Assembly: GCF_964204645.1 (NCBI RefSeq)
Contig: NC_134026.1
Coordinates: forward strand, 31,096,150-31,160,149
Source of the DNA: Tubulanus polymorphus
Lineage: Eukaryota > Animalia > Nemertea
Direction: 5' to 3'
Length of the DNA: 64,000 nucleotides
Positions 13,844-50,800 of the stretch are shown here, in pieces; the stretch's first letter is position 1; the number at the start of each line of letters is the position of its first letter. The position numbers and the translations under genes were made by a program. A model generated the notes under the pieces. The model made no database searches, was not told where the DNA came from, and saw only the letters and a program-made list of their open reading frames with translations.

Positions 13844-17265
<3,422 letters not shown>

Positions 17266-27795: not shown

Positions 27796-30700
27796 CTATA
27801 TTCCTTGAGTGATTGTAAAATCTGACATGTCCTCCGATGGTTTCAATACTAAATTCTGAAGCGAAAATAAATCAGTTTCATTCATTTATTAATCCGCAAA
27901 ATTGTTTTAAATTTTAATTAATGAATTTTCGTTCAAAGTCTCAGATTGAAAACTATAATTTACAGTTCATTAAGGAACTCGACAATAAAAATAATGGAGT
28001 TCAACTCTCACATGAGTAAGGTCGGTCATCATTGACTTTGTTTTTCTAGGGTTCATACTAAACTAGTGGAGGAAGAACAGAGCTGAATTTCATAAACATT
28101 GGGGAGCAAAATAATAATCTTTGTGAACATTTTGAAATTTGTCAGTTATTACCACAGTTCTTCAATCTTTGTAACACTGAGGATTTACCCGTGGGGTTAA
28201 ACTTTGATATCCAGGCTATGAAACCAGGCCCAGCAGGTAAAGGATTAACCCCTAGGGGTAGCTTTGATACCCGGTCTATGAAACCAGGCCCAGCAGGTAA
28301 AGGATTAACCCCTAGGGGTAGCTTTGATACCCGGTCTATGAAACCAGGCCCAGCAGGTAAAGGATTAACCCCTAGGGGTAGCTTTGATACCCGGTCTATG
28401 AAACCAGGCCCAGCGGGTAAAGGATTAACCCCTAGGGGTAGCTTTGATACCCGGTCTATGAAACCAGGCCCAGCGGGTAAAGGATTAACCCCTAGGGGTA
28501 GCTTTGATACCCGGTCTATGAAACCAGGCCCAGCAGGTAAAGGATTAACCCCTAGGGGTAGCTTTGATACCCGGTCTATGAAACCAGGCCCAGCAGGTAA
28601 AGGATTAACCCCTAGGGGTAGCTTTGATACCCGGTCTATGAAACTAGGCCCAGCGGGTAAAGGATTAACCCCTAGGGGTAGCTTTGATACCCGGTCTATG
28701 AAACCAGGCCCAGCGGGTAAAGGATTAACCCCTAGGGGTAGCTTTGATACCCGGTCTATGAAACCAGGCCCAGCGGGTAAAGGATTAACCCCTAGGGGTA
28801 GCTTTGATACCCGGTCTATGAAACCAGGCCCAGCAGGTAAAGGATTAACCCCTAGGGGTAGCTTTGATACCCGGTCTATGAAACCAGGCCCAGCGGGTAA
28901 AGGATTAACCCCTAGGGTTAGCTTTGATACCCGGTCTATGAAACCAGGCCCAGCAGGTAAAGGATTAACCCCTAGGGGTAGCCTTGATACCCGGTCTCTG
29001 AAACCAGGCCCAGCAGGTAAAGGATTAACCCTATCAATGAAATCTAGGGTTTGCTTGGTATTCTTAAAACAATCAGGTCGAATGAATACTGTTAGATAAT
29101 GGACTCAATCAATAATCTCAATGGATCAATCGTATATTTACCTTTTCATTAGCAAGATGTAGTAAACAAACAAATGCGATCGGAACGCTTAAATTCTTCG
29201 CCATATTTTTGGAGACTTTATTCGGTAGAACGTCGACGAGTTCGCTGAATGTGTGAGTTCCGTTGACGCTATCGTTTAAACGAGGCGTTTGAGGAGTTTC
29301 ATCATTCTCCTGTTAAACATAAAATACAACAGTCAAATTAACTCCGACAACAAGAATCAGGGTTCGTCGTACACTTCAACCGGAATTCCAGGAGGTGTAT
29401 GAACCCTGAAGAATTGAACTAGAAATCTAGCAGCAGACAGTGTGCGCGTTGCCCCAGATCTCACGGGACCAATAAATTCTCAATTCGAGGTACCCGGCGC
29501 ACCCGCAGCAGGGATGGGTCATTATCAAGATAGATTGAAATAAGAAAACATGTTTGGTGCATGCTATAATCCGAGATAAGAGTCTGTACATAGGGTCAAA
29601 ATTTCTTCAAGAAATCGGAGGATATCGAACTGATAAGAGAATAATTTATGATGTAAATGAAATGAAATGAACGCTATCAATATAAATAGCTACCTGTACC
29701 TTGTCACCCTCGGGGGGAACCATTAAAACATTCCACATACTGTGCTTCAATTTTTTCACGTCCATTTTTTTCGCAGCTTTAGCGTAAGCGATATCGATTT
29801 TACTGACCTGTAATCAAACAAATTTAACTCGTATTATTTTAAACTGGAGACCAATAACAGGAACCGAATCCTCAACTATTCGAATCCAGGTTTCATGAAA
29901 AAGTTAAGCTCTAATTTTTGGTTTAATTACTGAATTGATTACTTCATATTTTCAATAAGAACAATTCAAACTCAACCGTTTCAAAATTGGATCCTGATCT
30001 TACTTTTTTTGGTTGTTCGAGTAAATTATCTCCGGTTAACATCGAAGAACCTTCACCAGCGCCTCCGACATCATCACCTAGAAAATTATCGGCGGTTTGT
30101 TGACTTAAATCGGACATCTGACTGAATTCACCTCCAGCAGTGAAATCAAAACCACCAGCATCGTCATCATCATCTTCCACTGCAGCAGTCTGTATTCAAT
30201 AGAAATATACATTCAAAATAGTTATGTAGTATTTTCACCCCTCCCCCTGAGAACTGGAAATCACGAACTTACATCGGCTGGACAGAAATTATCGCGATCA
30301 TTCGCGTTATCATAATCATAATCAGCGACACTAGCGTCGAGATCTTCAGTTGAGTTGTACGTCTGTCGTCGAATCTATTTCAAATATAATTAAAATTAAT
30401 TTCTAGGAAACGCTTTTCAAGATCTAGTTCCACAGTTGTGATTTAGAGATAGTTAGAATAACATTGACCAGGTATAAATCAAAGCCTGTCTATAGGGAAC
30501 GCGTGCGAGACCAAGCAAGAACTGTTCACTGTAGACATTTTTTTACTTTAGTTTATTTTCAATGAGTTTTAACTCTGAAATCTCAACTGTGGAACAGGAT
30601 ACTGGATCCAGTTCCAGAGTTAGAGTTAACTCTGATTGAAATCTTAACTTTCTAATCTTCTAACTTTTTATAATGTGATTTTAGAATGTAAAGTGCTGTG

Positions 30701-35639: not shown

Positions 35640-38600
35640 ATGGCGGACGAAGAGAAATCTCGTGTTTTGCAATGGAATGAAATGGATTTAGACGACAGAA
35701 TTCTCCTGGTAAAGTCTTAATACGATGTAACAAACCAAGAACAGACAATCATAGCTGTTACATAATTAGAAAACACAGTTATTCAATGTCAGGCGATCTT
35801 AATCTGGGCATCCATTTTTGACTGAAATTGAAACTCAAATCCAAGTCAAATCATCAATTCAACAACTTCAATCATTCATTCACACAACACAACTTCAAAA
35901 CAAAATGTTGGCCTACAACGTTGCATGCAGGTCCAGCATTTAGCATTTAGGGCAATGGAATGAGCAAGTTGGACTACTACACTTGCCAGCCCACCTCAAA
36001 CTGTTTTGCCTTTTTTGGCAATTAATCTGCCGTTTTTGGCGTGACAGATGTTGATGATTGTGATAGATTCTATAGTTGTTTATTTTATAGGCGATATCTA
36101 AATTAGGATGGGCCGAACCGACGATGATCCAAGAGAAAGCGATACCTTTAGCTCTTCAGGGTAAAGATATTCTGTCTCGAGCTCGAACTGGATCCGGAAA
36201 AACTGCTGCATACGCGATACCAGTTATACAGAAAATACTCAACTCTAAACAGGTGGGAGACGAATCTTAGAATAATATAGACCCAGTTTCACCAAATAGT
36301 CCTGCTAAAAACTAAAGTTTTCGGTTACACATTTTTGCTGCAAGTTCAAACTTAACCATTTGATTTGAAGCTTAAATTTTTTCACGAAACTGAACCCGGG
36401 AGCAAAGGAAAATTTCTGAATCCTTGAGAAGAGTTCCTGCATTCTAGAATCCAATCATTTGAAATCTTGATATTTTTAACAGATGTTGATGTTATATTTT
36501 TTACAGTTAGCTACGGAACAGACTGTAAAGGCGTTCGTGCTCACCCCGACGAAGGAACTGTCGCATCAAGCTTACAAAAATATCCTTGATTTAACGGCGA
36601 ATTGTTCTAAAGAAGTAAAATGTATCGATATTTCTGGTCAGATTGAGTTGGACGCTCAGAGACCGATGTTAATGGAACAGCCCGATGTCGTAGTCGGTCC
36701 GCCCAGTCGTATATTCGCGCATTTAAAAGCCGGAAATTTGAAAGTGAAAGAATCGTTAGAACTTCTGGTCATCGATGAAGCAGATTTAGTTTTCTCGTTC
36801 GGTTACGAAAATGACGTCAAACAAATATTGAAATATTTACCGAAGATATTTCAGTCGTTTTTGATGTCAGCGACGCTCAGCGAAGACGTGAAATCACTGA
36901 AAAAACTCGTTCTTCATAATCCGGTGATCTTAAAACTGGAGGAGGCTCGACTTCCGGAAACCAGTCAACTTACGCAGTATCATATCAAGTGAGTTTATAC
37001 GTGAACATATCATTTAGGACTAACTTTAGAGAGACCTGAACACTGGGGTCTTACAGATCAAACAAAATAGGAGGAAATCAGGGAATTTTGCTCAGTAGGA
37101 TAATCGGGCAATTTGAATTTTTAGTATCTTGTTCTTGCTCTGGTGATGAGTGACACAAACAGCCCTCACTGAGGATGTCTTATAATTCGATCAGGGAATT
37201 CAAATTCTAACCTCTTATCTGTAAGAGCCCTATGAAAATGTGTTTATTATAACCAATTGAATTTAGAGAATAGTTTTAAACTATTGCGTTATTTTTGCTC
37301 TATGTTTTAGATGTGAACAAGAAGACAAGTTTGTACTGATTTATGCGCTGTTTAAATTGAGATTGATTTTGGGTAAATCTCTAATCTTCGTCAATAGTGT
37401 TGACAGATGTTATAAATTGAAACTGTTTCTGCGACAGTTCGGAATTGGTACATGCGTTCTGAATTCAGAACTACCCGGAAACTCTCGGTACGTACCGATA
37501 TTAGATACGTTTTAAATGTTTTAGGTACAAAAGATGAATTTGTTTTGATGGTATTTATTACAGGTGTCACATTGTAAATCAGTTCAACGATGGTTTATAC
37601 GATGTATTGATTTCCTCAGATGAACGCGCCGACCAGATTCAACAGAAAGGCAGTCAGAAAAACCGTAAGAAAAGGTACCTATCATTTTATATTAACTGAT
37701 GTTTGAAAAATTATTCTGACATTCTCAAGGAACCTTAGCGGCAATTGATTTCAAATACAGTGAAATGTGGTCGCCTTGTATGCCTCGGATTATTGCGTGT
37801 CCCACACGACAAAATGTTAAAGATTGTCCTAATTTAATCCTTGTGATGACCAGCCATCATCACTCTGGAGAATTTACTTGCTGCCCTCTGGGCCCAGTTC
37901 CATAGTCATGGCTTAGACTTAAGACCAACTTAAGGCCATCTTAGTTCTATAACCAATCTTACAACTTAAGACCAGTGTAAACTAAATTTGGTTCTTTAAC
38001 CAATCTAACAACTTACGACCAGTCTTAAAATCTAAGTCCATTTTTGGACTTAAGTCTCAACTGAGGAACCGGCCCTCTCCGGTCAAATTTACTAGCTGCC
38101 TCAGGGAGTAAATTCATTGGTCTTGTGAAATCGTGATTAGAGTCTCTTCTTGCATTAAGTATTTTATTTTTTCTTAGGAAGAAGGATCTCGAATCAGGAG
38201 TTTCACGTGGTATCGATTTTCAGAAAGTTTCGAACGTAATAAACTTTGATTTTCCGATGGATGTGGATTCGTATATTCACCGAGTTGGACGGACCGCTCG
38301 CGGCGACTGTAAAGGAACCGCTCTATCATTCGTCAGTTTAGACGAAATGCCGCGTCTAGAAGAAATAGAAAATACATTATCTGATAGCACGCGTGAGTAC
38401 AATACACAATAAAACTAATTATATGCAAATATATTCACTGATAAAACTAATTATGCAGATTTATTCATGTGTTTGTTTGTGTTTGATTGGTGGAATTTTC
38501 ATTTATTTCAAGCGGAAGGGACGAGTTTGTTTAAACCGTATAATTTCAAGATGGACGAATTGGAAGGTTTTAGATATAGAGCAAAGGTTCGTATTACAGT

Positions 38601-39877: not shown

Positions 39878-40081
39878 TGTTTTTAATAACAAAATAAAAT
39901 TGATAAATTTCAAATTTGATCGAGTTGCCTTTGACTGACTAGTGGAATGTGGACTCCTCCTGGTGGAATGTGGACTCTATCAAACAGATGAGACGAGAAG
40001 ATACATTAAACAGAATCTCTTGAGAGACAAAAAGACAAAAATGTTTTTAAATAAAAATTTCCGAGTTTATTTGTTAACATT

Positions 40082-41847
40082 TTATGCTAATATTTCAACC
40101 ATTTGGTTAATGATACTGTCTAATCTATCGGCAGGAATAATCATAACGGTTCTGTACGAGTCGAATTCCTCGTCCTCATCGTCCCAGTCTCCTCCGACAG
40201 CGGTATCCTTCTCACTGTTCACGCAATACGAGAAATTAAATATCGCCTCCTGAAATAACAATGATGAACAAATTAAACTGAATCTGAAGACTCTGGAAAA
40301 ACCTCTCAAAAACATAAACAGGGAAGAGTGGAGATCTAGGAAGCTAAGAGTCTAAAGGAACAGTCGGGTTATTTTCCAGGTCACATTCCTGTTCAGCGAA
40401 AGAAACATTTTGCATTTGGAATACAATAGATTCAATTTCAACGTGAATGAGTTTAGTCAAATTTGCAGGTTTCAACGACATTTATCTTGACAAAAAGGCA
40501 GGAAAGGTAAGGGGCTGGACCGCCTGACATTACCACCTAAATTTCGTCCTTGATTAAAGTAAAACCTGAATCTACCTGGAAAAAGAGTTCCTCCTCCGCG
40601 TTTTGGAAGATCAGTTCCAACGATTCATCTTTCTTTTTCATCTTCGATTTTGTGTCCTTTAAAACGTTCGTTTTACTGATCATTAAAAAGTTCTTGAATT
40701 CGAATTTCATTTTCTTCTGATTCGCTTTCTCAATTTCCTTTCTACAAAATTAAGCGATCATTTTAACGATGACGATAAGACGTATTGAGGATATTTTCAG
40801 AAACTGAACGAAGATTTTCTACTAACTTTAACGCTTGAAACGAAGGTAAAGCTATTTGTGGCGGGATATTGATGAATCTTTCGTTGATTAAAAATCCTAA
40901 ACATTGTCGCGAATCGCTGAAATAATTCTTAAACTGATCTCTTTTATTACAATCATTGCACCTTTCTGTTAACGTCGAGACCATTTGTTTTACGAAATCA
41001 GCGTCCTGTAATGGAATAAATGAATTTGATAATTTACAATCAAAGAGCATCCGATTTACTTGGTTTCCGATTAGCAAATAATCTCTACCTTTTTGACGGT
41101 AACATTGATTACAGAAATGACACCGAAAACTTCATTAGAATCGCTGATATCTTCATCATCTTCTTCTTCTGATAATTCACATTGCTATAGAATATAAGTT
41201 CAGGTTTATTAAGCGTCTGCTCAAATCTCGTTTTAATGTTCACTTTACAATGATGATACAGACTTACTTTTATGATACTTCCGACATAATTTTGGGCGAT
41301 TATCATATCTGACATTTCTGTCAGGTCAATATTGGCTTTGATAAACAGCTGAAAATAAAACAAAAAAGTTCAAATATAAATCATTTATAAGCTTTTTAAA
41401 TCTTTTAAGCCGTAAGGAATGTAAATAATTTAAGCCTTCAATAATTTTGATGGGAATTTTTAAAATGGTTTTCATTCAAAGACTTTAATTTACCTGTTGT
41501 AATAGTCTACGGATGCCATGGAAATCACTGTCATCTGCTGTTCTCGCTTCAAAATCAATTTGAATCTCCTGCAAAAAAGTAGCACACGATGGATTCGAAC
41601 CCAGTTGATAAAACGCCACTAGTTAACATATGAGACTAGGGTCGAATCCCATAAATATTCCATAACAACATGATTTAATATGGAATTTGGATCGATGGAT
41701 TACCTTTTCCAACATTTCGTCATCACTGTTTTCACTTTCATCGTCATCCTCACTGTCATTTTCCTCCACATCTGGGTCGTTAGTCTCTTCATTTTCCAAT
41801 TTTTTCATTTCATCCTCGACCGCTCGCTTTTTCCTGGGCGCAGCCAT
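40082..41847 (-). CDS. BCCIP: BRCA2 and CDKN1A-interacting protein (BCCIP/Bcp1), multi-exon
   Basis: Acidic N-terminus; IQIDFEARTADDSDFHGIRRLLQQLF; EMSDMIIAQNYVGSIIK; LGFLINERFINIPPQIALP; FQNAEEELF; VGGDW. Confidence 0.96.
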
Positions 41848-42104
41848 CTTGTTTTTATAAATGTGGAATCTATTTCTGAAACAATGGTTCCAAAGTTATC
41901 CGATATTTGTTATATTTTTCAATCAAATTTTACTAGAATTGTCGGTAATTAGTTTTTTTTAATTTTACTGTTCAATTTGATAAAAGACTTTCTCAAATCC
42001 TAACTGTGCACAGAAACGCGTGCTTCCTAGCACATCATCGTGCCAGCGTTATAGTTTTAGTTTTAATAGTAGAAAGGTCCCGAAATAGGTTATTTCTATT
42101 TTAA
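41848..42104. promoter_or_regulatory. Short bidirectional promoter between BCCIP and the PNK-like gene
   Basis: Divergent ATGs at 41847 (-) and 42105 (+). Confidence 0.6.
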
Positions 42105-45100
42105 ATGAATGAATTAGTTTTCCTATGGGGCCCATCAAATGTGGTAAGAAATATAAGATGGAAGAAATATTCTATACGCTATCATGCCATGGCTTATGAG
42201 AGTGTCCGTAGTTTATTCTGGATTTATGTGTGGCCAAAACGAATGCACCCAGTAGTTTTTCAAATGCCACCTAGATGGCGGCAAAGTCTGGTCGAATATT
42301 TTTTCGGAATCGCTTGCGGTCAAACGCCGGGACGATTAGAAAATAATTGATAATTCACGAATTTCGTTCTCATTTTCAGGGGAAATCGATTCACTGTCAT
42401 TCTTTATCGGGTTTGAGTTTATCATCGACGAAATGGTTCGCAGAAAATCCCGAATCAGGATTGCGTTCATTTATTATGCACGCAACATCACTAATCAAAG
42501 AGGTAAAAATGCATTTTTGTTGCCTTTTTAATGTTTTTCACTTTGTTTTGTTGAAACTTTAGAACTCTTTGATTTTAGAGTAAGAAAGTCATTATAGATG
42601 ATGACACCACATTGAAAGTTCGTAAAGCATTTATTGACTTCATAAAGAAGAAGGTATTTAAGAGATTTTATGCCAATGATGATAGTGAAAATTATGAAAT
42701 CTGAAGTATATGTTGTCCATGATTTCAGTTGGATATAAGATGCAAGTTTTCGTGCATCAAATGCTTCCCAAAGTTCGGTACAGATCAACTATTATGGGCT
42801 AGAGAATTCAGGAGAGCCGAGATAGCAAACGAAAGCATTGAAAGAGTCCATATTACTATTGACGATGGCGTCTTAGACTCGTGGAAATATAACGATAGTC
42901 AATTACATTGTTTACCAGGTTAAACATACACATGATATTCAGAATCGTTTTGTAAAAAAAAATATTTCAATCCTTTTCAAAATTCATCTGTTTGATATTT
43001 GTAGACTGTCCATCGAAAACCGAGGAAAACTTAGAGATTACAGAAATAAAGTTGCCTTTGATCTTTCATTCGTTTTATAAGGTCATCCATTCTCCTATTT
43101 GAATAACGAACTCATAGATCGTCATATGTCACGTACTAAGTATGTTTTGTTGTATGTTTACAGGCAGATAAACCATGTTTATTAATTGAACGCGAATGTT
43201 TTATAAATACTGATGCTTCAAAACTTAAAAACATCATTTCTCATTGGTTGAATTTAAACCCTATAGGATGGATAGTAGTAATTACTCCTTATTCACCAGG
43301 TATAGTATATATCTTGCACATTTTGAGATGAAATATAGTGGAAAATGTTATGCAGAATGAGTTTGTTTACGGTGCTATTTCAGGATCAAGTTTTCAATCA
43401 CGTTTATCAAAACAGAATGAAGTTCTTAGACATTTTATCACGCAGGTAAATGAGGAAAGTGTTTGTCGATTCTTTCGATATTATGAATTTTCAAATTGAA
43501 TGAACGGTTGTTTTTTAAATACAGTTAGAAGTTCCGATTTATGAAGTGAGTTTAGATGAAGCAATCGGAAAGAGCTCATTTTTACAGCCTCCACAAAGTG
43601 GATTATTAGCATTCATTCATAGATTGTTCCTCATCAATTTACATCATAAGGTAATTAATAATTATCACACTATAGACTCCTTACTAAATTCGGTGCATTT
43701 ACTGAAAAGGTTCGCTTGTTAATTCACTACTGAACAAGGCAGGACCAATTGTATTTACAGTAGATATGTCCAGTAATTGTCAGTAATCATGATTTTCCTC
43801 TAATAGAGAATTGTTTATACTTCAGTACACGTTGCTTCTGTGTCAGTCTCCAAATCTCATCAAATGTGCAATAAATATTGGAATGAAATACATGAAGGTA
43901 AAATAACGAAATGAAAATATTCCTGAACGTTCGAGAAAATTGCATTCACTCGATATTTTACCTGTTTCAGAATGAAAAAGTGTTAAAAGACCCTAAACTG
44001 GTATGTCTTGAAATAGAAAGCTCAATTTCAGTCACTGGATTCGAGAAATGGGTCATAGTTTTCACAATTAATGTTACAGATAGTGTGCAATCAGGCATTT
44101 AATAAACCTGCAATACCCGAGATGTTGTCAAGCATAGAAACTAAATGGATGTTGGATACAGAGCCAGATTTAACTATACCTCTACAACATCTAAACAGAC
44201 GGCAAACTGAAAACAACTGGCTTCATATCCACCACGATGTTGGACACGGGATTTCTGTGCATCTATTCTGCAAAGATGAAATGACGTTAGGAAGGTATGA
44301 TGAAATTTCTCGTCAAGTTCAGATCACCAGCATTGAACACGAAATAAGATTTAGATTGAATATTTTTTCTGATCTGATGCAGATTCACTGAGAAGCACAT
44401 CGAAACGAGTACTCCAATACATGAATCAGGAAGTAGACTAGTACCAGACACAGCCGACCGAGTGGAGTTTCTCAACCCGACTTTTGATCAAGATGAAAGT
44501 ATTCTAGAAACGACGACATCTGAACAACGTCCCCGTGAAAACAGATCAATAGAATCATCGAAACCTAAGACAGTTGTTTTATCATCACCTAATAAACGTC
44601 AATTACCGGCTTGGATGAATACATCGCCTAAAAAACATAAATATGTCAAACGGTAAATATAGGTCCCACACCTGAAGAGTAAAACTTCAAGGTCTCTTTT
44701 TTCTTGCTGGTGACAAATGGCACGAGAAACTCCTTCAGAAGAAACAGAGGGAATTGTGGTTCCCTGATTTTTATGAATCCAGCACAGTCATGATTAGGTG
44801 CAATGAGGGTGGATTCTAAAATGCATGAATGTTACACAAGGTTTTGATGAATCTTTGATTCAATTGTTTTCATATGGATTTATTTTTTTAGAGGAGTTAT
44901 AACAACTAAATATATCCTGACTCCTGATGAACTTGTACAAGTTGCTAAACAAGTATTGGACCAGGTAAACACTGAATTAATGTTCAAATAATCAATGAAT
45001 GTTTTTATTTTGATTTGTTGTTGATATTTGTTTTAGGAAAATAGTGATGAGGAAATGACGGAAATGCAGCAGCCTGTTACAGATGCACCAGATCAGCAGC

Positions 45101-45636
45101 AGCCTGTTAAAGATGCAATGGATCAGCAGCTCCCTGTTACAGGTGCAATGGATCAACAGCTACCTGTTACAGGTGCAATGGATCAGCAGCAGCCTGTTAA
45201 AGATGCAATGGATCAGCAGCTCCCTGTTACAGGTGCAATGGATCAGCAGCTACCTGTTACAGGTGCAATGGATCAGCAGCTACCTGTTACAGGTGCAATG
45301 GATCAGCAGCTCCCTGTTACAGGTGCAATGGATCAGCAGCTACCTGTTACAGGTGCAATGGATCAGCAGCTACCTGTTACAGGTGCAATGGATCAGCAGC
45401 TACCTGTTAGAGGTGCAATGGATCAGCAGCTACCTGTTACAGGTGCAATGGATCAGCAGCTACATGTTACAGGTGCAATGGATCAGCAGCTACCTGTTAC
45501 AGATGCACCAGATCTAGCAAACAGCAGTAAACATAGACTTGAAGAAGATAAGACGGATCAAAACCAGAAACTGAATCCAATCTCGAATAATGTAAAGAAA
45601 CAAACTGAAATCGATTTGTCATTTTTAGATTTTTGA
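42105..45636 (+). CDS. Uncharacterised polynucleotide-kinase-like protein: P-loop kinase, degenerate HAD-like domain, Ku-binding/CYREN-like module, 10-aa repeat tail (14 exons)
   Basis: Phase-consistent GT-AG exons 42105-42143, 42380-42502, 42579-42653, 42729-42918, 43005-43081, 43164-43299, 43384-43445, 43525-43650, 43826-43897, 43971-44000, 44080-44294, ~44382-44652, ~44892-44964, 45037-45636. Motifs: ELVFLWGPSNV|GKS, KKVIIDDDTTLKVRKAF, QPPQSGLL, CAINIGMKY, KRQLPAWM, TKYILTPDELVQVAKQVL. Confidence 0.8.
45065..45513 (+). repeat. Coding 30-bp tandem repeat (AMDQQLPVTG), ~15 copies
   Basis: In frame within the last exon of the PNK-like gene. Confidence 0.9.
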
Positions 45637-45728
45637 TCTTTTTATTGCGATTTTTATATTTTAATAAAATATACACAGGAAAGTTTTAAATGCAAGTTTT
45701 GGTAAATTGAATGAGGGTTGAATCGAGG

Positions 45729-47718
45729 TTAGAATGATTGAACAGATTTTAAACAGCGATCTTTGAAAAACACATGATTCTTAGCTTTGATTTGTTTGGC
45801 GACTGATTTGAAGAAAGACGTCAGGGCTGGAGTGTTTTTCGGTCTTTTTTTCATTGGTTCATCATCATCTTCATCATCCCTGAAACATTAGAGACATCAT
45901 CACTATAATCATCTATACTGGAATTGATGTTTTGACAAATATTGAATTAGTCCAATTTGCTGAGACGAGCATCATGTTGATAACAAATCAAAATGATCTA
46001 CATCGATGGTAAAATAAATTAGAAATTGGGACTTCAAAAAGAGATGACTTCAGAAATTTGACTGAGTTTGACTCGTGAACATACCAATGAACAGGAACAC
46101 ATTTCTTCTCTATTGCGGAGTATGCTGTAGACCAACTTATACGCACAAAATGTGGAAAACCAAATACTGGATCAATACTGTCGACCATGAACTTCTTAGT
46201 TTGTGGATCTGGAAGGAGAAAAATTTATACTGACGAAATATCAACTTAAAATCAGCATCAAATTAATAGATTTTGAAGAAGGGGACATTCATTCCTAAAG
46301 ATGGATGTATTTTAGGCATTATTTACAAAGAAAAGATGGTCAAATTTCGTCCCCTCTTCTTTAAACACGTATATGTACTTTATAAATGGGAATTTAAACA
46401 GTACCTGCAGGATAACCCGAACCAAAACCACCTTCTGGAACTTTGATCTTTTCACCCTCAGTAAATTCCCATGATTTGGTGGCCCTATCTCTCGCTACCT
46501 AGAAATAAATGTTTGTAATAATCAAAAATACGATCGTCATAAACTATAGGAAATAATATCGAAATATAACTTACTTTAGCACAAATACTGGCAGCACTGA
46601 CTATAGGGTAGATACTATCAGCCTTTTTAGCTACTGTGATATTCAAATTTGGGAATATTTTCGATAGTTTCTCCTGATATTTCTCGGGAGGTCCAACTGT
46701 ATCTACATAAACCTATAACGTAACAGATAATCTATCACTGAGTTCTCAGTGTAACATCTAATGTAATATCTAATGTAATACCTAGTTAAATATCTAGTGT
46801 AAAATATCTAGTGTAAAATATCTAATGTAACATCTTGTGTAATATCTAATGTAATACCTAGTTAAATATCTAGTATAATATCTAATGTAAAATACCTAGT
46901 GTAATATCTAATGTAATATCTAATATAATGACTGGTGTAATGTCTAGTGTAATACCTAGTGTAATATCTAATGTAATGGCTGGTGTAATATCTAGTGTAA
47001 TACCTCAGTTAGATTGACACCTCTTTCAATGGACCTCTGTATGAGACCAATAGCTGTATCATGAGATATCGCATTCAGATTATATTTCGCTCTGGAAAAT
47101 AAATAAGAAATAGAGAAAATAGAGACGACTTCTTGAGTTTGAATGTGGAAACTTTGTAAATCTGACAACCTTTTCAGCATACTAGTTGATATATAGTGAG
47201 GTGAGAGTATATCAACTGTCCAACCAATCATTTCTTCTGCTTCTTCTAATTTTGTAAATAATTCTTCGCGTTGTTCTTCAGTCAAAGTCTTTGAATCTGT
47301 TATAATGAAAATATATCGAATATTGCTATTTCAATTCGAATTCGGTCAAACTTGTGACACCTATCAACATCATATATTCTACTCACCCGCAAAACCAATT
47401 TCTTTTAATTTGTCGTTGCTTGCAACTGGGCAATATGATATTCCATACACCATCGGGCCTAAAATCAAAATCATACATCATTAATATAGCGTCCGGCGTT
47501 ATAGGACCCGAACATCGACAAACTTTCCACCAGCTGGTGCTGCCATCGGGCGGTATTAACGAAAATTAAACATATATATTTGCTTATTTACCTAAAACTG
47601 GACCCCTTCCAGCTTCATCAATACCCAGACAACACGGTTCAACCTTACATATCTCCGGAACATCACATTCTAATTTGAGATTTTGAGTATTATTATCCGT
47701 GAAACGTTTTATATCCAT
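45729..47718 (-). CDS. RNASEH2A: Ribonuclease H2 subunit A, multi-exon
   Basis: [18 protein letters not shown]; [13 protein letters not shown]; [12 protein letters not shown]; [13 protein letters not shown]; [21 protein letters not shown]; GSGYPADP; C-terminal PIP-like LTSFF. Confidence 0.97.
46748..47003. repeat. Intronic ~13-bp degenerate tandem repeat
   Basis: (TGTAATAYCTAR)n directly abutting a RNASEH2A splice donor. Confidence 0.85.
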
Positions 47719-47859: not shown

Positions 47860-50800
47860 ATGAATCCAGGTAAATCCAGGAGTGTCGGTATATAGTGATC
47901 CCTGCGGGAGGGAGGGGCTGCTGCAGCTGGTGGGGCGAGAAGAGAGAACTCAGTCTCTTATCCATATCTTCCCCTACCCCCTAACTAAATAACTAAAACC
48001 CTTACCTTTATTATTGCCTTGGCTTTTGTGTTTTCTTATTCATTTAGATTCAGGCTAGTTACCCCCTAAATTGCAGTTGAGTTATACACCCGCTAAAAAA
48101 GTGACCCCTTTTTATCTGATCCTTACCCCCTAAACTGCAATTTAACCAACAACCAGTTGAGCAGTTTTCAATATATATACTCGATGTCTAATTTTGCCGC
48201 AGGTGAAGATGAAGACAGTCAGAGTAAACGACGTAAACATGGAATGCTTAAGATGTATTACGGAATAGCAGACGATCAGAGCGGAGCGTCTGCTTCTATT
48301 GATCCGTGCGATATTAACGGAGCTCATTTCAAAGCTGATATATTCTTGAATAAACTCCTCCGCGAGAAGAGTCTCGCTGAGTTAATGGATAAAGAGTCTG
48401 AGATGGTTAAGAATATTAAATCCCTAGACAGTGATATGCAGACATTGGTTTATGAGAATTACAACAAGTTTATCAGTGCTACTGATACTATTAGAAAGGT
48501 CAGGTTACAGATTATTCACGGGCTTTGACGCAACCTTGTTTATCCCCAGGGACGAGTTCCATAGTCATGACTTAGACTTTAGGTCTAAGACCAGACTAAA
48601 CTCATTTTGTTTCTATAACCAATCTAACAACTAAGACCAGTAGTCAAGATTTGAGATCATTTTTTGGACTTTTTAAGTCTCAACTATGGAACTGTCACCT
48701 GTATCCTAGTAAGACAATTACTTGGATATTTGGGGTAAACAAGTTTGTGTCAGGACCTTTTGCATACTCCAAATGCTTTTTATCCAAATGGCTTTTATTA
48801 AAGTCTTCTTGCCGTTATAGATGAAGAATGATTTTAAGAAGATGGAAGATGAAATGGATCGTTTAGCTACGAATATGGAATCAATAACAGAATTCAGCGG
48901 TCGAATTAGTACAACATTACAGGATCGTAGACAACAGATCACTAAACTAGCCGGAGTTCATATACTACTTAAAAAGGTTCAATTTAACAATCTGAAGCAC
49001 GTCTCTAAATGTTTTTCTTACACGTTTTTGTAAATGTTTCTTTCTCTGATTTCAGCTTCAATTCCTATTTGAATTACCAGCGCGTCTTAAAAAGTGTATT
49101 GAAATGAAAGCTTACAGTCAGGCAGTGCGGTATGATATCTACTTGTATATTACCTACTGCCGTATTACCGGTATTACTGTATTGTATTCTGATTTCTATC
49201 GTATTTTCCAGATATTACACGAAAGCTCAGAAAGTTTTATGTCACTATCAGGACATGCCTTCATTTCACGGTATACAACAAGACTGTAATGAAATTGTCA
49301 AAGAACTGCGATCGAAATTGAAAGAGAAATTCCGCGATAAAGAGGTGGTGTTTTACCCTTGGAAAATTCTAGTATTTCGCTTTCTATCAGTATTGTAAAC
49401 ATGGATATTTTATCTGATCATTTTTCAGTCAACTCCGAAAGAATTAGCTGAATGTGTCGATTTGTTGCTACAATTGAATGAACCAGCTGAAGAACTATGT
49501 GAGGAATTCTTATCTCAGTAAGTGTGTTAGTTAACAGCCAATTAACCAGCCAGCTTACTTCATAAACTATTCAACCAGCCAGCTAACTGCACAAACCAGT
49601 CCGTCAGCCAACCATCTAGCGAGGTGACCACCAAACCAGTTGACCAGCCAGACATCCATCTTTTTATTTTTCAGTGCTCAGCAGAAAATAGATGAAGATC
49701 TTCAGAAGTTGGAGTATCAGTTAAAATTACAATCAGGAGAAATAGAACCAAAAACTACAACTGAAGTTGAACGTCCTTCAGATGTTTATCTAGACGTCAA
49801 TTTACCGGTGGTAAGATCAATATTCATTTCGTTTATGATTAGAATGAAAAATATTCACAAGAATTTTACAAAATCATCGAAGCAACTTTTCTGCCTATTT
49901 CAGAAAGAGCAGCCAGTGGTGTGTTTTATATTGTATTTATTGGGCATGATTCATAGAAAGTAACAAATAACGTCACCCTTTTAGATAAAGAATATTCCTC
50001 GTATTATTTAATAGTGTAAAACTCAGGATTCAGTTCCACAGTTTGCTGGTTAAGATTCAACCTTGAGTTATGATTAGTTCATAACCGATGTTTTAACTCT
50101 ATTGAGTCTAAAATCTAGAACAGGTAAAACTGTAGAACCGAGTCCTGGGTAAAACTAGTTACTAATTGTGTTTGTAGATGTTTAACTTTGTGAGTTAAAG
50201 ATGGTGGAAATTATACTTAATCATTGCACGATTTAGAATTGTTCCAGAAAATGCATGTCACACCTTGTTTTGATCATTTTAAATGTAGTTTAGTTAAAAA
50301 TTTTAGATATGATACATTAATTTTACATAGAAATCCAACAAAAATTAACCATTAACCAATTCATAGTTATATTCATACTTTCACTTATTACTAATACATG
50401 TGTTATTTTTATGTGCACAGCTTTAAAATGTTCACCTTTTTCTGTGTGTGATGATTCATCTTTTGGGCCCATTTGCTGCCAGGACCCAGTTCACAAACTT
50501 GTCCGGTTAAATTTGACTCCAAAATTAGAATTCATTCTCGATGTTTTATCTCTGGAGTCAAATTCTAACCGTGGAACTGCATCCATGTTGATAGATACCA
50601 CAGTAACAGTTTTAATTGTTAAGTCAGTTATCCACTTATTTACTCTAGCCTACTTTTAGGACAACTAAACCTCTGAAGGTTCAATAGAAATTGCTCTAAC
50701 GATTCTATTTTAGAACTGTTTAAAATGTTTTACTTCATTGTAGTTGATTTTAACAAGAATTTTCTTTCTGAAATGCTGTAGGATATTTTGGAGTTTATTG

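Follow-up and report, generated by a model that had tools for sequence, protein, structure and literature searches.

In animals, the restoration of 5'-phosphate and 3'-hydroxyl DNA ends is, to our knowledge, ascribed to a single enzyme, polynucleotide kinase-phosphatase (PNKP), which reaches breaks by way of its FHA domain. The partners of that domain are phosphorylated XRCC4 and XRCC1 (PMC5449630; papers given by such numbers are cited from extracts). Phage T4 Pnkp requires Lys15, Ser16, Asp35, Arg38, Asp85 and Arg126 (PMC2831316), and its phosphatase needs Asp165 and Asp167 of the DxDxT motif (PMC3592404, which also gives the T4 domain limits). In the extracts of the Ku literature, R-x-x-P-x-W is the minimal core of the APLF-type Ku-binding motif (A-KBM), whose binding to the vWA domain of Ku80 depends on the Trp (PMC4831024, PMC8224183); the carriers of Ku-binding motifs named there are APLF, WRN, MRI, XLF, PAXX, Pol lambda and RAG2, and a PNK-like carrier is not among them. 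Here we describe a 14-exon gene on the plus strand at 42105-45636 of a window of 64,000 nucleotides from the nemertean Tubulanus polymorphus (assembly GCF_964204645.1, contig NC_134026.1, positions 31,096,150 to 31,160,149; the window is the whole stretch analysed, and positions are counted from its first letter). The gene is real and spliced, and it encodes a 695-amino-acid member of a so far unnamed protein family of invertebrate animals. The reading that we favour, which we hold to be about evenly poised between right and wrong, is that this family joins a PNKP-type kinase, placed first, to a HAD fold without catalytic motifs, placed second, and is brought by Ku to broken DNA ends through a peptide in its tail.

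Gene structure and splicing

The gene lies in AT-rich eukaryotic DNA with short introns, all of which run from GT to AG, and the exons join into a single open frame. An in-frame TAA abuts the upstream side of the ATG at 42105, and the stop codon is 45634-45636. The exons are listed below, with the evidence for each in brackets; joints are those of spliced contigs in a public run, X4.

42105..42143, plus strand: exon 1, start codon and first half of Walker A, MNELVFLWGPSNV (upstream TAA, spliced contig, homologue N-termini)
42380..42502, plus strand: exon 2, GKS of Walker A at 42380-42388, strand 2, and the Lys of the candidate catalytic-base column within 42425-42436 (joints 42143/42380 and 42502/42579)
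42458-42466, plus strand: conserved GLR of exon 2 (alignment and residue tallies)
42579..42653, plus strand: exon 3, VIIDDDT with a Walker-B-like Asp at 42588-42608, conserved Arg in KVRKAF at 42615-42632 (upstream joint listed in X4; downstream intron from GT..AG, frame and identity to the NCBI protein)
42729..42918, plus strand: exon 4, remaining kinase core with an invariant Trp and WAREFRR at 42795-42815 (X4 record 28)
43005..43081, plus strand: exon 5, end of the kinase domain and linker (GT..AG, frame, identity to the NCBI protein)
43164..43299, plus strand: exon 6, first strands of the predicted HAD fold, LLIERECF at 43179-43202 at the place of DxDxT, WIVVITP at 43269-43289 (joint 43299/43384; DSSP strands 180-184 and 211-216 in the AlphaFold model)
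43384..43445, plus strand: exon 7, helix of the predicted HAD fold (joints on both sides)
43525..43650, plus strand: exon 8, LEVPIY strand and QPPQSGLLAF at 43585-43614, family consensus PPxPGlLAflQ (joints; P, G and A columns near-invariant)
43826..43897, plus strand: exon 9, TLLLCQSPN at 43829-43855 at the place of the GD motif of active HADs, then A..aGv (joints, alignment)
43971..44000, plus strand: exon 10, a micro-exon of 30 bases (joints 43897/43971 and 44000/44080)
44080..44294, plus strand: exon 11, end of the predicted HAD fold and a small beta-sheet element (joints; DSSP strands 337-381 of the NCBI protein, predicted local distance difference test score (pLDDT) >85)
44383..44652, plus strand: exon 12, helix, disordered linker, Ku-binding-motif-like NKRQLPAWM at 44591-44617, then a basic stretch (joints)
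44892..44964, plus strand: exon 13, conserved helix TKYILTPDELVQVAKQVLDQ at 44905-44964 (joints)
45037..45636, plus strand: exon 14, acidic start, 30-base coding minisatellite at 45066-45507, stop codon
45663..45668, plus strand: AATAAA 3' of the stop codon, likely the polyadenylation signal (sequence only)

The joint 42143/42380 is present in X4 contigs (GT..AG, depth 23.4) and yields G-P-S-N-V followed by G-K-S, which fits GxxxxGK[ST]; record 27 of the run spans 42012-42142 and continues for 30 letters past this joint. Nine further introns are among the X4 joints listed (42502/42579, 43299/43384, 43445/43525, 43650/43826, 43897/43971, 44000/44080, 44294/44383, 44652/44892 and 44964/45037), so that at least 10 of the 13 introns have contig joints. 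Introns 3-5 fall outside the joints listed; the frame and the NCBI model are consistent with them, and record 28 spans exon 4 (42727-42916) within a contig of 428 letters. X4 consists of contigs whose library kind is not on record, and it is evidence for the presence of the spliced form rather than for its level or 5' end. When exon 4 alone was used as a query, it matched one protein among 5.8 billion, at 98% identity: the NCBI 'uncharacterized protein LOC141899192 [Tubulanus polymorphus]' of 702 amino acids (P0001 in our set). From residue 14 on, the 695-residue model is identical to residues 21-702 of P0001.

A first-pass annotation of the window had put forward a hidden gene that emerges on phase-consistent splicing, with Walker A built across intron 1. 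The use of the 42143/42380 junction in X4 and the N-termini of the family bear this out, and every peptide segment quoted in that annotation is present in the sequence. The gene end that it gave, at 44000, has to be moved, since four more coding exons carry the gene to 45636.

The NCBI model begins with a different exon:

40447..40507, plus strand: NCBI first exon MSLVKFAGFNDIYLDKKAGK, encoding the first 20 residues of P0001, within an intron of the minus-strand BCCIP gene

This exon gives ...KKAGKGKS, a non-canonical P-loop, whereas the exon at 42105 gives GPSNVGKS. In family members the N-terminus is a hydrophobic strand that leads into GPPxxGK[ST] (the Lineus protein, for instance, reads MTELVLLVGPPLVGKS), and it aligns with the exon at 42105-42143 and not with the NCBI peptide. 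Because the homologues start in this way, unlike the NCBI exon, the conserved exon 1 at 42105 is supported. The joint 40507 to 42380 was not found among the X4 joints listed. The NCBI exon is probably mis-called or a minor alternative first exon, and as such it masks the P-loop of LOC141899192.

Distribution of the family

A phmmer search of 1.84 billion representatives identified 40 proteins at E <= 1e-3 (39 besides the query itself), 29 of them at E <= 1e-10. Identity to the query is 23-36% (25-30% for the 18 best), most members are 450-800 residues long, and the better matches cover most of residues 21-503 of the query. Thirty of the 39 non-self matches were looked up, of which 25 carry a species name. 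These are spread over molluscs (15 species), annelids, echinoderms and hemichordates (two species each), and nemerteans (Lineus), brachiopods, amphioxus and corals (one species each). Neither a vertebrate, an arthropod (insect) nor a nematode is among the 25 named matches, although a single-sequence search cannot prove absence. A quick maximum-likelihood tree, which has several long branches, groups the nemerteans (91), molluscs (99), hemichordates (99) and echinoderms (85), the pattern expected from vertical descent.

All 25 species-named members are labelled uncharacterized, hypothetical or unnamed, and no named family of this kind was found in the literature at the level of titles and abstracts. 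The gene thus belongs to an unnamed family and is not an orphan, and Pfam has no model for the family itself. Its membership of a widespread animal family went unnoticed in the first-pass annotation, as did the Ku-binding-motif-like peptide of the tail and the Lys that this species has in place of the likely catalytic acid of the kinase. Searches of whole P0001 against Pfam, NCBIfam and PHROGs gave only weak matches or matches driven by the repeat of exon 14 (DUF3203 on DQQLPVTGAM), and single exons against Pfam gave only noise. Word-indexed homologue searches returned the query protein itself and nothing else, and the family emerged only in the exhaustive HMMER search; the word-indexed searches were probably swamped by the exon 14 minisatellite.

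A predicted PNKP-type kinase domain

The first domain is predicted to adopt a P-loop kinase fold of the PNKP type. A profile of 25 family members, run against 177,635 PDB sequences, ranked the kinase domain of mouse PNKP first (E = 5.4e-4), and the next unrelated match stands at 0.084. The alignment extends from Walker A to the PNKP segment 'VVIDNTN..R', with which the Asp region of exon 3 is aligned. AlphaFold2, supplied with a 40-sequence alignment, returned a model whose predicted template-modelling score is 0.62; in it, 291 residues reach pLDDT >= 90, and residues from about 30 to 410 form an ordered core. When this model was compared with the PDB by Foldseek, mouse PNKP held ranks 1-7 (9.2e-5 to 1e-3) and T4 Pnkp ranks 8-10. 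In VIA-align, model residues 1-172 superpose on residues 364-508 of mouse PNKP (1yj5_A) with Z 10.4 and a root-mean-square deviation (rmsd) of 3.4 over 140 aligned residues. Comparison of the family with a 9-sequence phage Pnkp profile by hhalign gave a probability of 90%, against 0.1% for the reversed control, and the confident part of this alignment is the kinase domain.

The first-pass annotation had assigned a PNKP/AAA_33 kinase. The PNKP type and the predicted P-loop kinase fold stand, by the family profile, Foldseek and VIA; AAA_33 (PF13671) appears only below cut-off, in 5 of the 40 members, over the N-terminal 100 or so residues (best 23.4 bits, in P0009, against a gathering cut-off of 27), and Pfam gave no AAA_33 match at E <= 10 in the window protein. 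Single-sequence searches of the PDB with phmmer, using P0001 or its N-terminal part, found no PNKP; their matches were eIF3a repeat noise and chance matches at E of about 0.65-1.4 (haemagglutinin stalk, RIB72D). In the ESM Atlas, feature scores of 0.85-0.88 to PNK3P clusters and a TM score of 0.44 to a giant-virus AAA_33+PNK3P cluster lie below the bar of the tool and serve as leads only.

A HAD-like domain without catalytic motifs

A HAD fold for the second domain is supported by comparison of predicted models with solved structures. The query for an exhaustive VIA search of 48,161 chains was a natural kinase-less fragment from Saccoglossus (P0025), folded with 46 sequences, and the best 50 rows were nearly all HAD-superfamily entries by title. 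GmhB came first (Z 10.9, 137 residues aligned), followed by a HAD-like phosphatase and HisB-N (both Z 9.8) and by the phosphatase of mouse PNKP, residues 175-330 (Z 9.5, rmsd 2.6, 124 aligned). Residues 177-319 of the window model gave Z 9.7 to HisB-N in VIA-align. The HAD-like fold of the earlier annotation is thus upheld by structure comparison, and sequence profiles are blind to the domain. Pfam HAD_PNKP (PF25109) was found neither in the window protein nor in the 40 members, with T4 as a positive control at 2.8e-59.

The same annotation had noted that DxDGT is absent and the phosphatase degenerate, and this extends to the family as a whole. D-x-D is found in 0 of 37 members; Q-x-E takes its place in 23 of the 37 and E-R-E in Tubulanus, and neither the Lys nor the GD motif is present at the corresponding places. 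Because the nucleophile Asp and the catalytic motifs are absent, the domain is predicted to be inactive as an aspartyl-phosphatase. The motifs that are conserved family-wide are yKFEVPaLfiQWEg at the DxDxT place, GRiiiI.DG, PPxPGlLAflQ and tlYiY...H...A..aGv. A small conserved element of beta-sheet plus helix follows the predicted HAD fold, at residues 337-400 of P0001. An FHA reading of 'TLGR...' was dropped; it has no Pfam match and only four short strands in the model.

The predicted kinase (model residues 1-172) precedes the predicted HAD fold (177-320). Both domains align in order with T4 Pnkp (1rrc_A; model 1-310 against 2-298, Z 9.4, 224 aligned) and with Pnkp1 (4xru_A; Z 9.5) in VIA-align, and two-domain kinases of phage and baculovirus rank on top in the viral library. 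The T4-like order of kinase then phosphatase proposed at the outset is borne out across both domains in these models; the lack of an FHA domain is likewise upheld, Pfam FHA being found in 0 of the 40 members.

The C-terminal tail and a candidate Ku-binding peptide

The peptide K-R-Q-L-P-A-W-M (44591-44617) follows a disordered linker, and pLDDT is below 50 on both sides of it. Of 32 family members that cover the site, 22 carry R-x-x-P-x-W and 29 the pattern hydrophobic-P-x-W-[ML]. This conservation, together with the disordered context, suggests that the tail peptide R-x-L-P-x-W-M may recruit the protein to DNA ends via Ku. One coral member, from Acropora cervicornis (P0034), has a SWIM-zinc-finger-like insertion exactly at the P-x-W site (Pfam SWIM, 3.4e-4), which could be a gene-model fusion or a real variant.

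Exon 13 encodes a conserved helix (t.Y.m.e.EL...A..ilkq; residues 490-512, pLDDT about 94). The conserved [ST]-x-x-E that precedes it is read here as a putative helix N-cap; its interpretation as a CK2/FHA site was considered and set aside. In exon 14 the minisatellite (TRF; 30-base unit, 14.7 copies, 93% matches) encodes DQQLPVTGAM repeats that are species-specific and predicted to be disordered. The DUF3203 match is confined to this repeat, which is also the source of the spurious eIF3a matches in the PDB.

Proposed function and alternative explanations

If the favoured reading holds, the tail peptide would dock on the Ku80 vWA domain in the manner of an A-KBM, and the protein would reach double-strand-break ends by a route other than that from FHA to phosphorylated XRCC4/XRCC1. 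In members that have Walker A and an acidic residue beside the PNK catalytic Asp position, the N-terminal domain would phosphorylate 5'-OH ends. The HAD-fold domain, unable to form an aspartyl-phosphate intermediate, would be a binding or scaffold module, and the conservation of its PPxPGlLAflQ surface speaks for continuing selection on it. The Tubulanus protein itself may bind nucleotide and yet be a weak or inactive kinase, given the Lys at its acidic column. A broader proposal is that the family is a second PNKP-like end-processing factor found from coral to amphioxus, with reversed order, a dead phosphatase and direct docking to Ku, so that 5'-phosphorylation or the recognition of ends during end joining would have a parallel route of recruitment. 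We put this forward tentatively and think it somewhat more likely to be wrong than right.

Several observations weigh against the favoured reading. More than 600 human proteins carry R-x-x-P-x-W and validation is needed, according to the extract of PMC4831024; for this reason the Ku argument rests on conservation and disordered context, and not on the pattern as such. The upstream basic patch is weak in the window protein (N-K-R). The window protein has no family above threshold in Pfam, NCBIfam or PHROGs, and the HAD domain goes unseen by sequence profiles (Pfam on the window protein and the 40 members, and the family profile against the PDB). With hhalign, domain 2 reached 0.2% against the phage Pnkp phosphatase profile, the reversed control reaching 0.4%, and the family reached 7.6% against single T4 Pnkp. 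Foldseek found nothing at E <= 0.001 for the kinase-less homologue (best 0.22). The N-terminus that was folded is moreover that of NCBI exon 1 and not the conserved exon 1.

The catalytic residues bear on how far the protein works as an enzyme. The window protein keeps the Lys and Ser of Walker A, the Asp of VIIDDDT and two conserved arginines. After strand 2, however, it reads S-S-T-K-W, with Lys rather than the catalytic Asp at the candidate catalytic-acid column, and its kinase activity is doubtful for that reason. The alignments to PNKP and to the phage proteins both put the catalytic Asp one residue away from the D/E column of the family; the assignment is thus uncertain by one residue, and the base could be a different residue. 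Of 29 assessable members, 14 have a degenerate Walker A, and in these the rest of the protein is conserved. Asp or Glu stands at the candidate base column in 13 of the 15 members with an intact Walker A (the exceptions being the window protein, with Lys, and Dimorphilus, with Tyr) and in 5 of the 14 with a degenerate one, a tally that counts related sequences and not independent events. Among molluscs, P0003, P0013, P0014-P0018, P0020 and P0022 have lost the Walker A Lys/Ser and the acidic residue and have kept the HAD-fold domain and R-x-L-P-x-W-M. The loss of both together in several molluscs looks like a lineage-wise shift to a pseudokinase, and the many molluscan members without Walker A mean that the family may not depend on catalysis. 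Such losses, the Lys of the window protein and the absence of HAD motifs from all 37 members are what would be expected if the whole protein, at least in Tubulanus, were a pseudoenzyme whose two domains are non-catalytic binding modules of a mere adaptor. The Walker A, Walker-B-like Asp and arginines that the window protein retains argue otherwise, as does the one-residue offset of the base column, and the 13 of 15 suggest that the kinase works in many lineages. We regard the adaptor explanation as unlikely, though one to be taken seriously.

The fold of domain 1 does not fix the class of substrate, because PSTK ties with PNKP: in VIA-align PSTK reached Z 9.7-9.8 (21-23% identity), C. thermocellum Pnk 9.6 and the Trl1 kinase 8.5-9.0. 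Together with the order of kinase then phosphatase, which T4 Pnkp and Pnkp1, both RNA-repair enzymes, also have, these values would suit an RNA-end or tRNA kinase-type factor (like T4 Pnkp, Pnkp1, Trl1 or PSTK) whose tail peptide binds a partner other than Ku. Such a factor is rather improbable, since the best relative at the sequence level is mammalian PNKP, a DNA-end enzyme, domain 2 lies nearest to HADs of the GmhB, HisB-N and PNKP type with no profile likeness to the T4-type phosphatase, and the conserved R-x-L-P-x-W-M fits the Ku-binding core. Domain 1 reached its highest Z of all, 11.8, with a fungal kinase bound to GDP (9drz_A); Z values of 8-9.4 were obtained with gluconate, adenylate and APS kinases and PFKFB3, and in the viral library baculovirus 'Nrk1' proteins take ranks 2 and 4. 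A small-molecule kinase (for a nucleoside, nucleotide or sugar-phosphate) fused to a degenerate HAD and unrelated to nucleic-acid ends could account for these matches. We consider it very improbable: PNKP is the sole sequence-profile match and leads in Foldseek, and a metabolic kinase would not be expected to carry a conserved short peptide in a long disordered tail. That the locus is not a functional gene (an open frame arisen by chance, a pseudogene or an artefact of annotation) might be argued from the lack of a single long open reading frame and from the differing first exons of NCBI and the earlier annotation. This has practically no probability left and is already refuted by the contig joints, the intact frame of 695 codons, the 39 homologous cluster representatives in eight phyla and the number of confidently modelled residues.

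Flanking genes and other features of the window

Upstream, the gene stands head-to-head with BCCIP, which was identified by a Pfam match and whose minus-strand introns are also seen in X4 contigs:

41849..42104, no strand assigned: spacer that separates the ATG of the gene described here from the head-to-head start codon of BCCIP (minus strand, 41848)

In the X4 contigs BCCIP ends at 41845 and this gene starts at 42012, less than 170 bases apart. From these contig ends and the head-to-head layout, 41849-42104 is likely a shared bidirectional promoter. Within a BCCIP intron, 41570-41650 on the minus strand reads like a tRNA-derived element resembling a short interspersed element, with a GGTTCGAATCC-type box; Rfam at the gathering threshold gave no match in 40000-46000. 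Elsewhere in the window, minisatellite arrays at 15152-16095, 16253-16751 and 28062-29104 have long open frames on both strands and are probably non-coding repeats. Pfam matches mark three further exons:

36480-36992, plus strand: DEAD-box helicase exon
46992-47330, minus strand: RNase HII/H2A exon
48097-48528, plus strand: VPS51/Exo84 N-terminal exon

Comparison with known systems

Mammalian PNKP (1yj5, 3zvl, 3u7e-h) is the closest solved relative of the kinase by profile and Foldseek, and its phosphatase (175-330) is matched by the predicted HAD fold; Walker A, the Asp of VVIDxxN and the following Arg are kept. The order in PNKP is FHA, phosphatase, kinase, whereas here the kinase comes first and an FHA domain is lacking. 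The motifs of the phosphatase have been lost, the window protein has a Lys beside the position of the catalytic Asp, and a tail with a Ku-binding-motif-like peptide stands in place of the FHA route. Phage T4 Pnkp (pseT) and bacterial Pnkp1 share with the Tubulanus model an N-terminal P-loop kinase and a C-terminal HAD-type domain in one chain. Unlike T4 Pnkp, the animal protein lacks the Asp residues of DxDxT and any profile similarity in the phosphatase half; its gene is split by 13 introns, and the chain further includes a small extra domain and a disordered tail of 300 residues.

For domain 2 the best folds are those of HAD subfamily IIIA, namely E. coli GmhB (2gmw) and HisB-N (2fpr), with Z 10.9 and 9.7-9.8 over 130-137 aligned residues and rmsd 2.8-3.1. 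HAD subfamily IIIA carries an RKPxPGM stretch, which the PPxPGlLA stretch of the family resembles; the nucleophile Asp, the Lys and the GD motif of that subfamily are missing here. With the A-KBM of APLF, WRN and MRI/CYREN the tail peptide shares the R-x-x-P-x-W core, a hydrophobic residue before the Pro, a disordered setting and conservation within the family. It differs in that the basic patch lies mostly downstream rather than upstream.

Several lineages appear to have lost Walker A and the candidate catalytic acid together. The family would show how nature can couple a kinase to a pseudo-phosphatase module. Should the Ku link prove true, the family would be an end-joining accessory factor, so far unrecognised, across a large part of the animal tree. 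Next to PNKP, it would be a second animal protein made from the same two domain types and wired differently, in domain order, in its dead phosphatase and in its Ku-type peptide.

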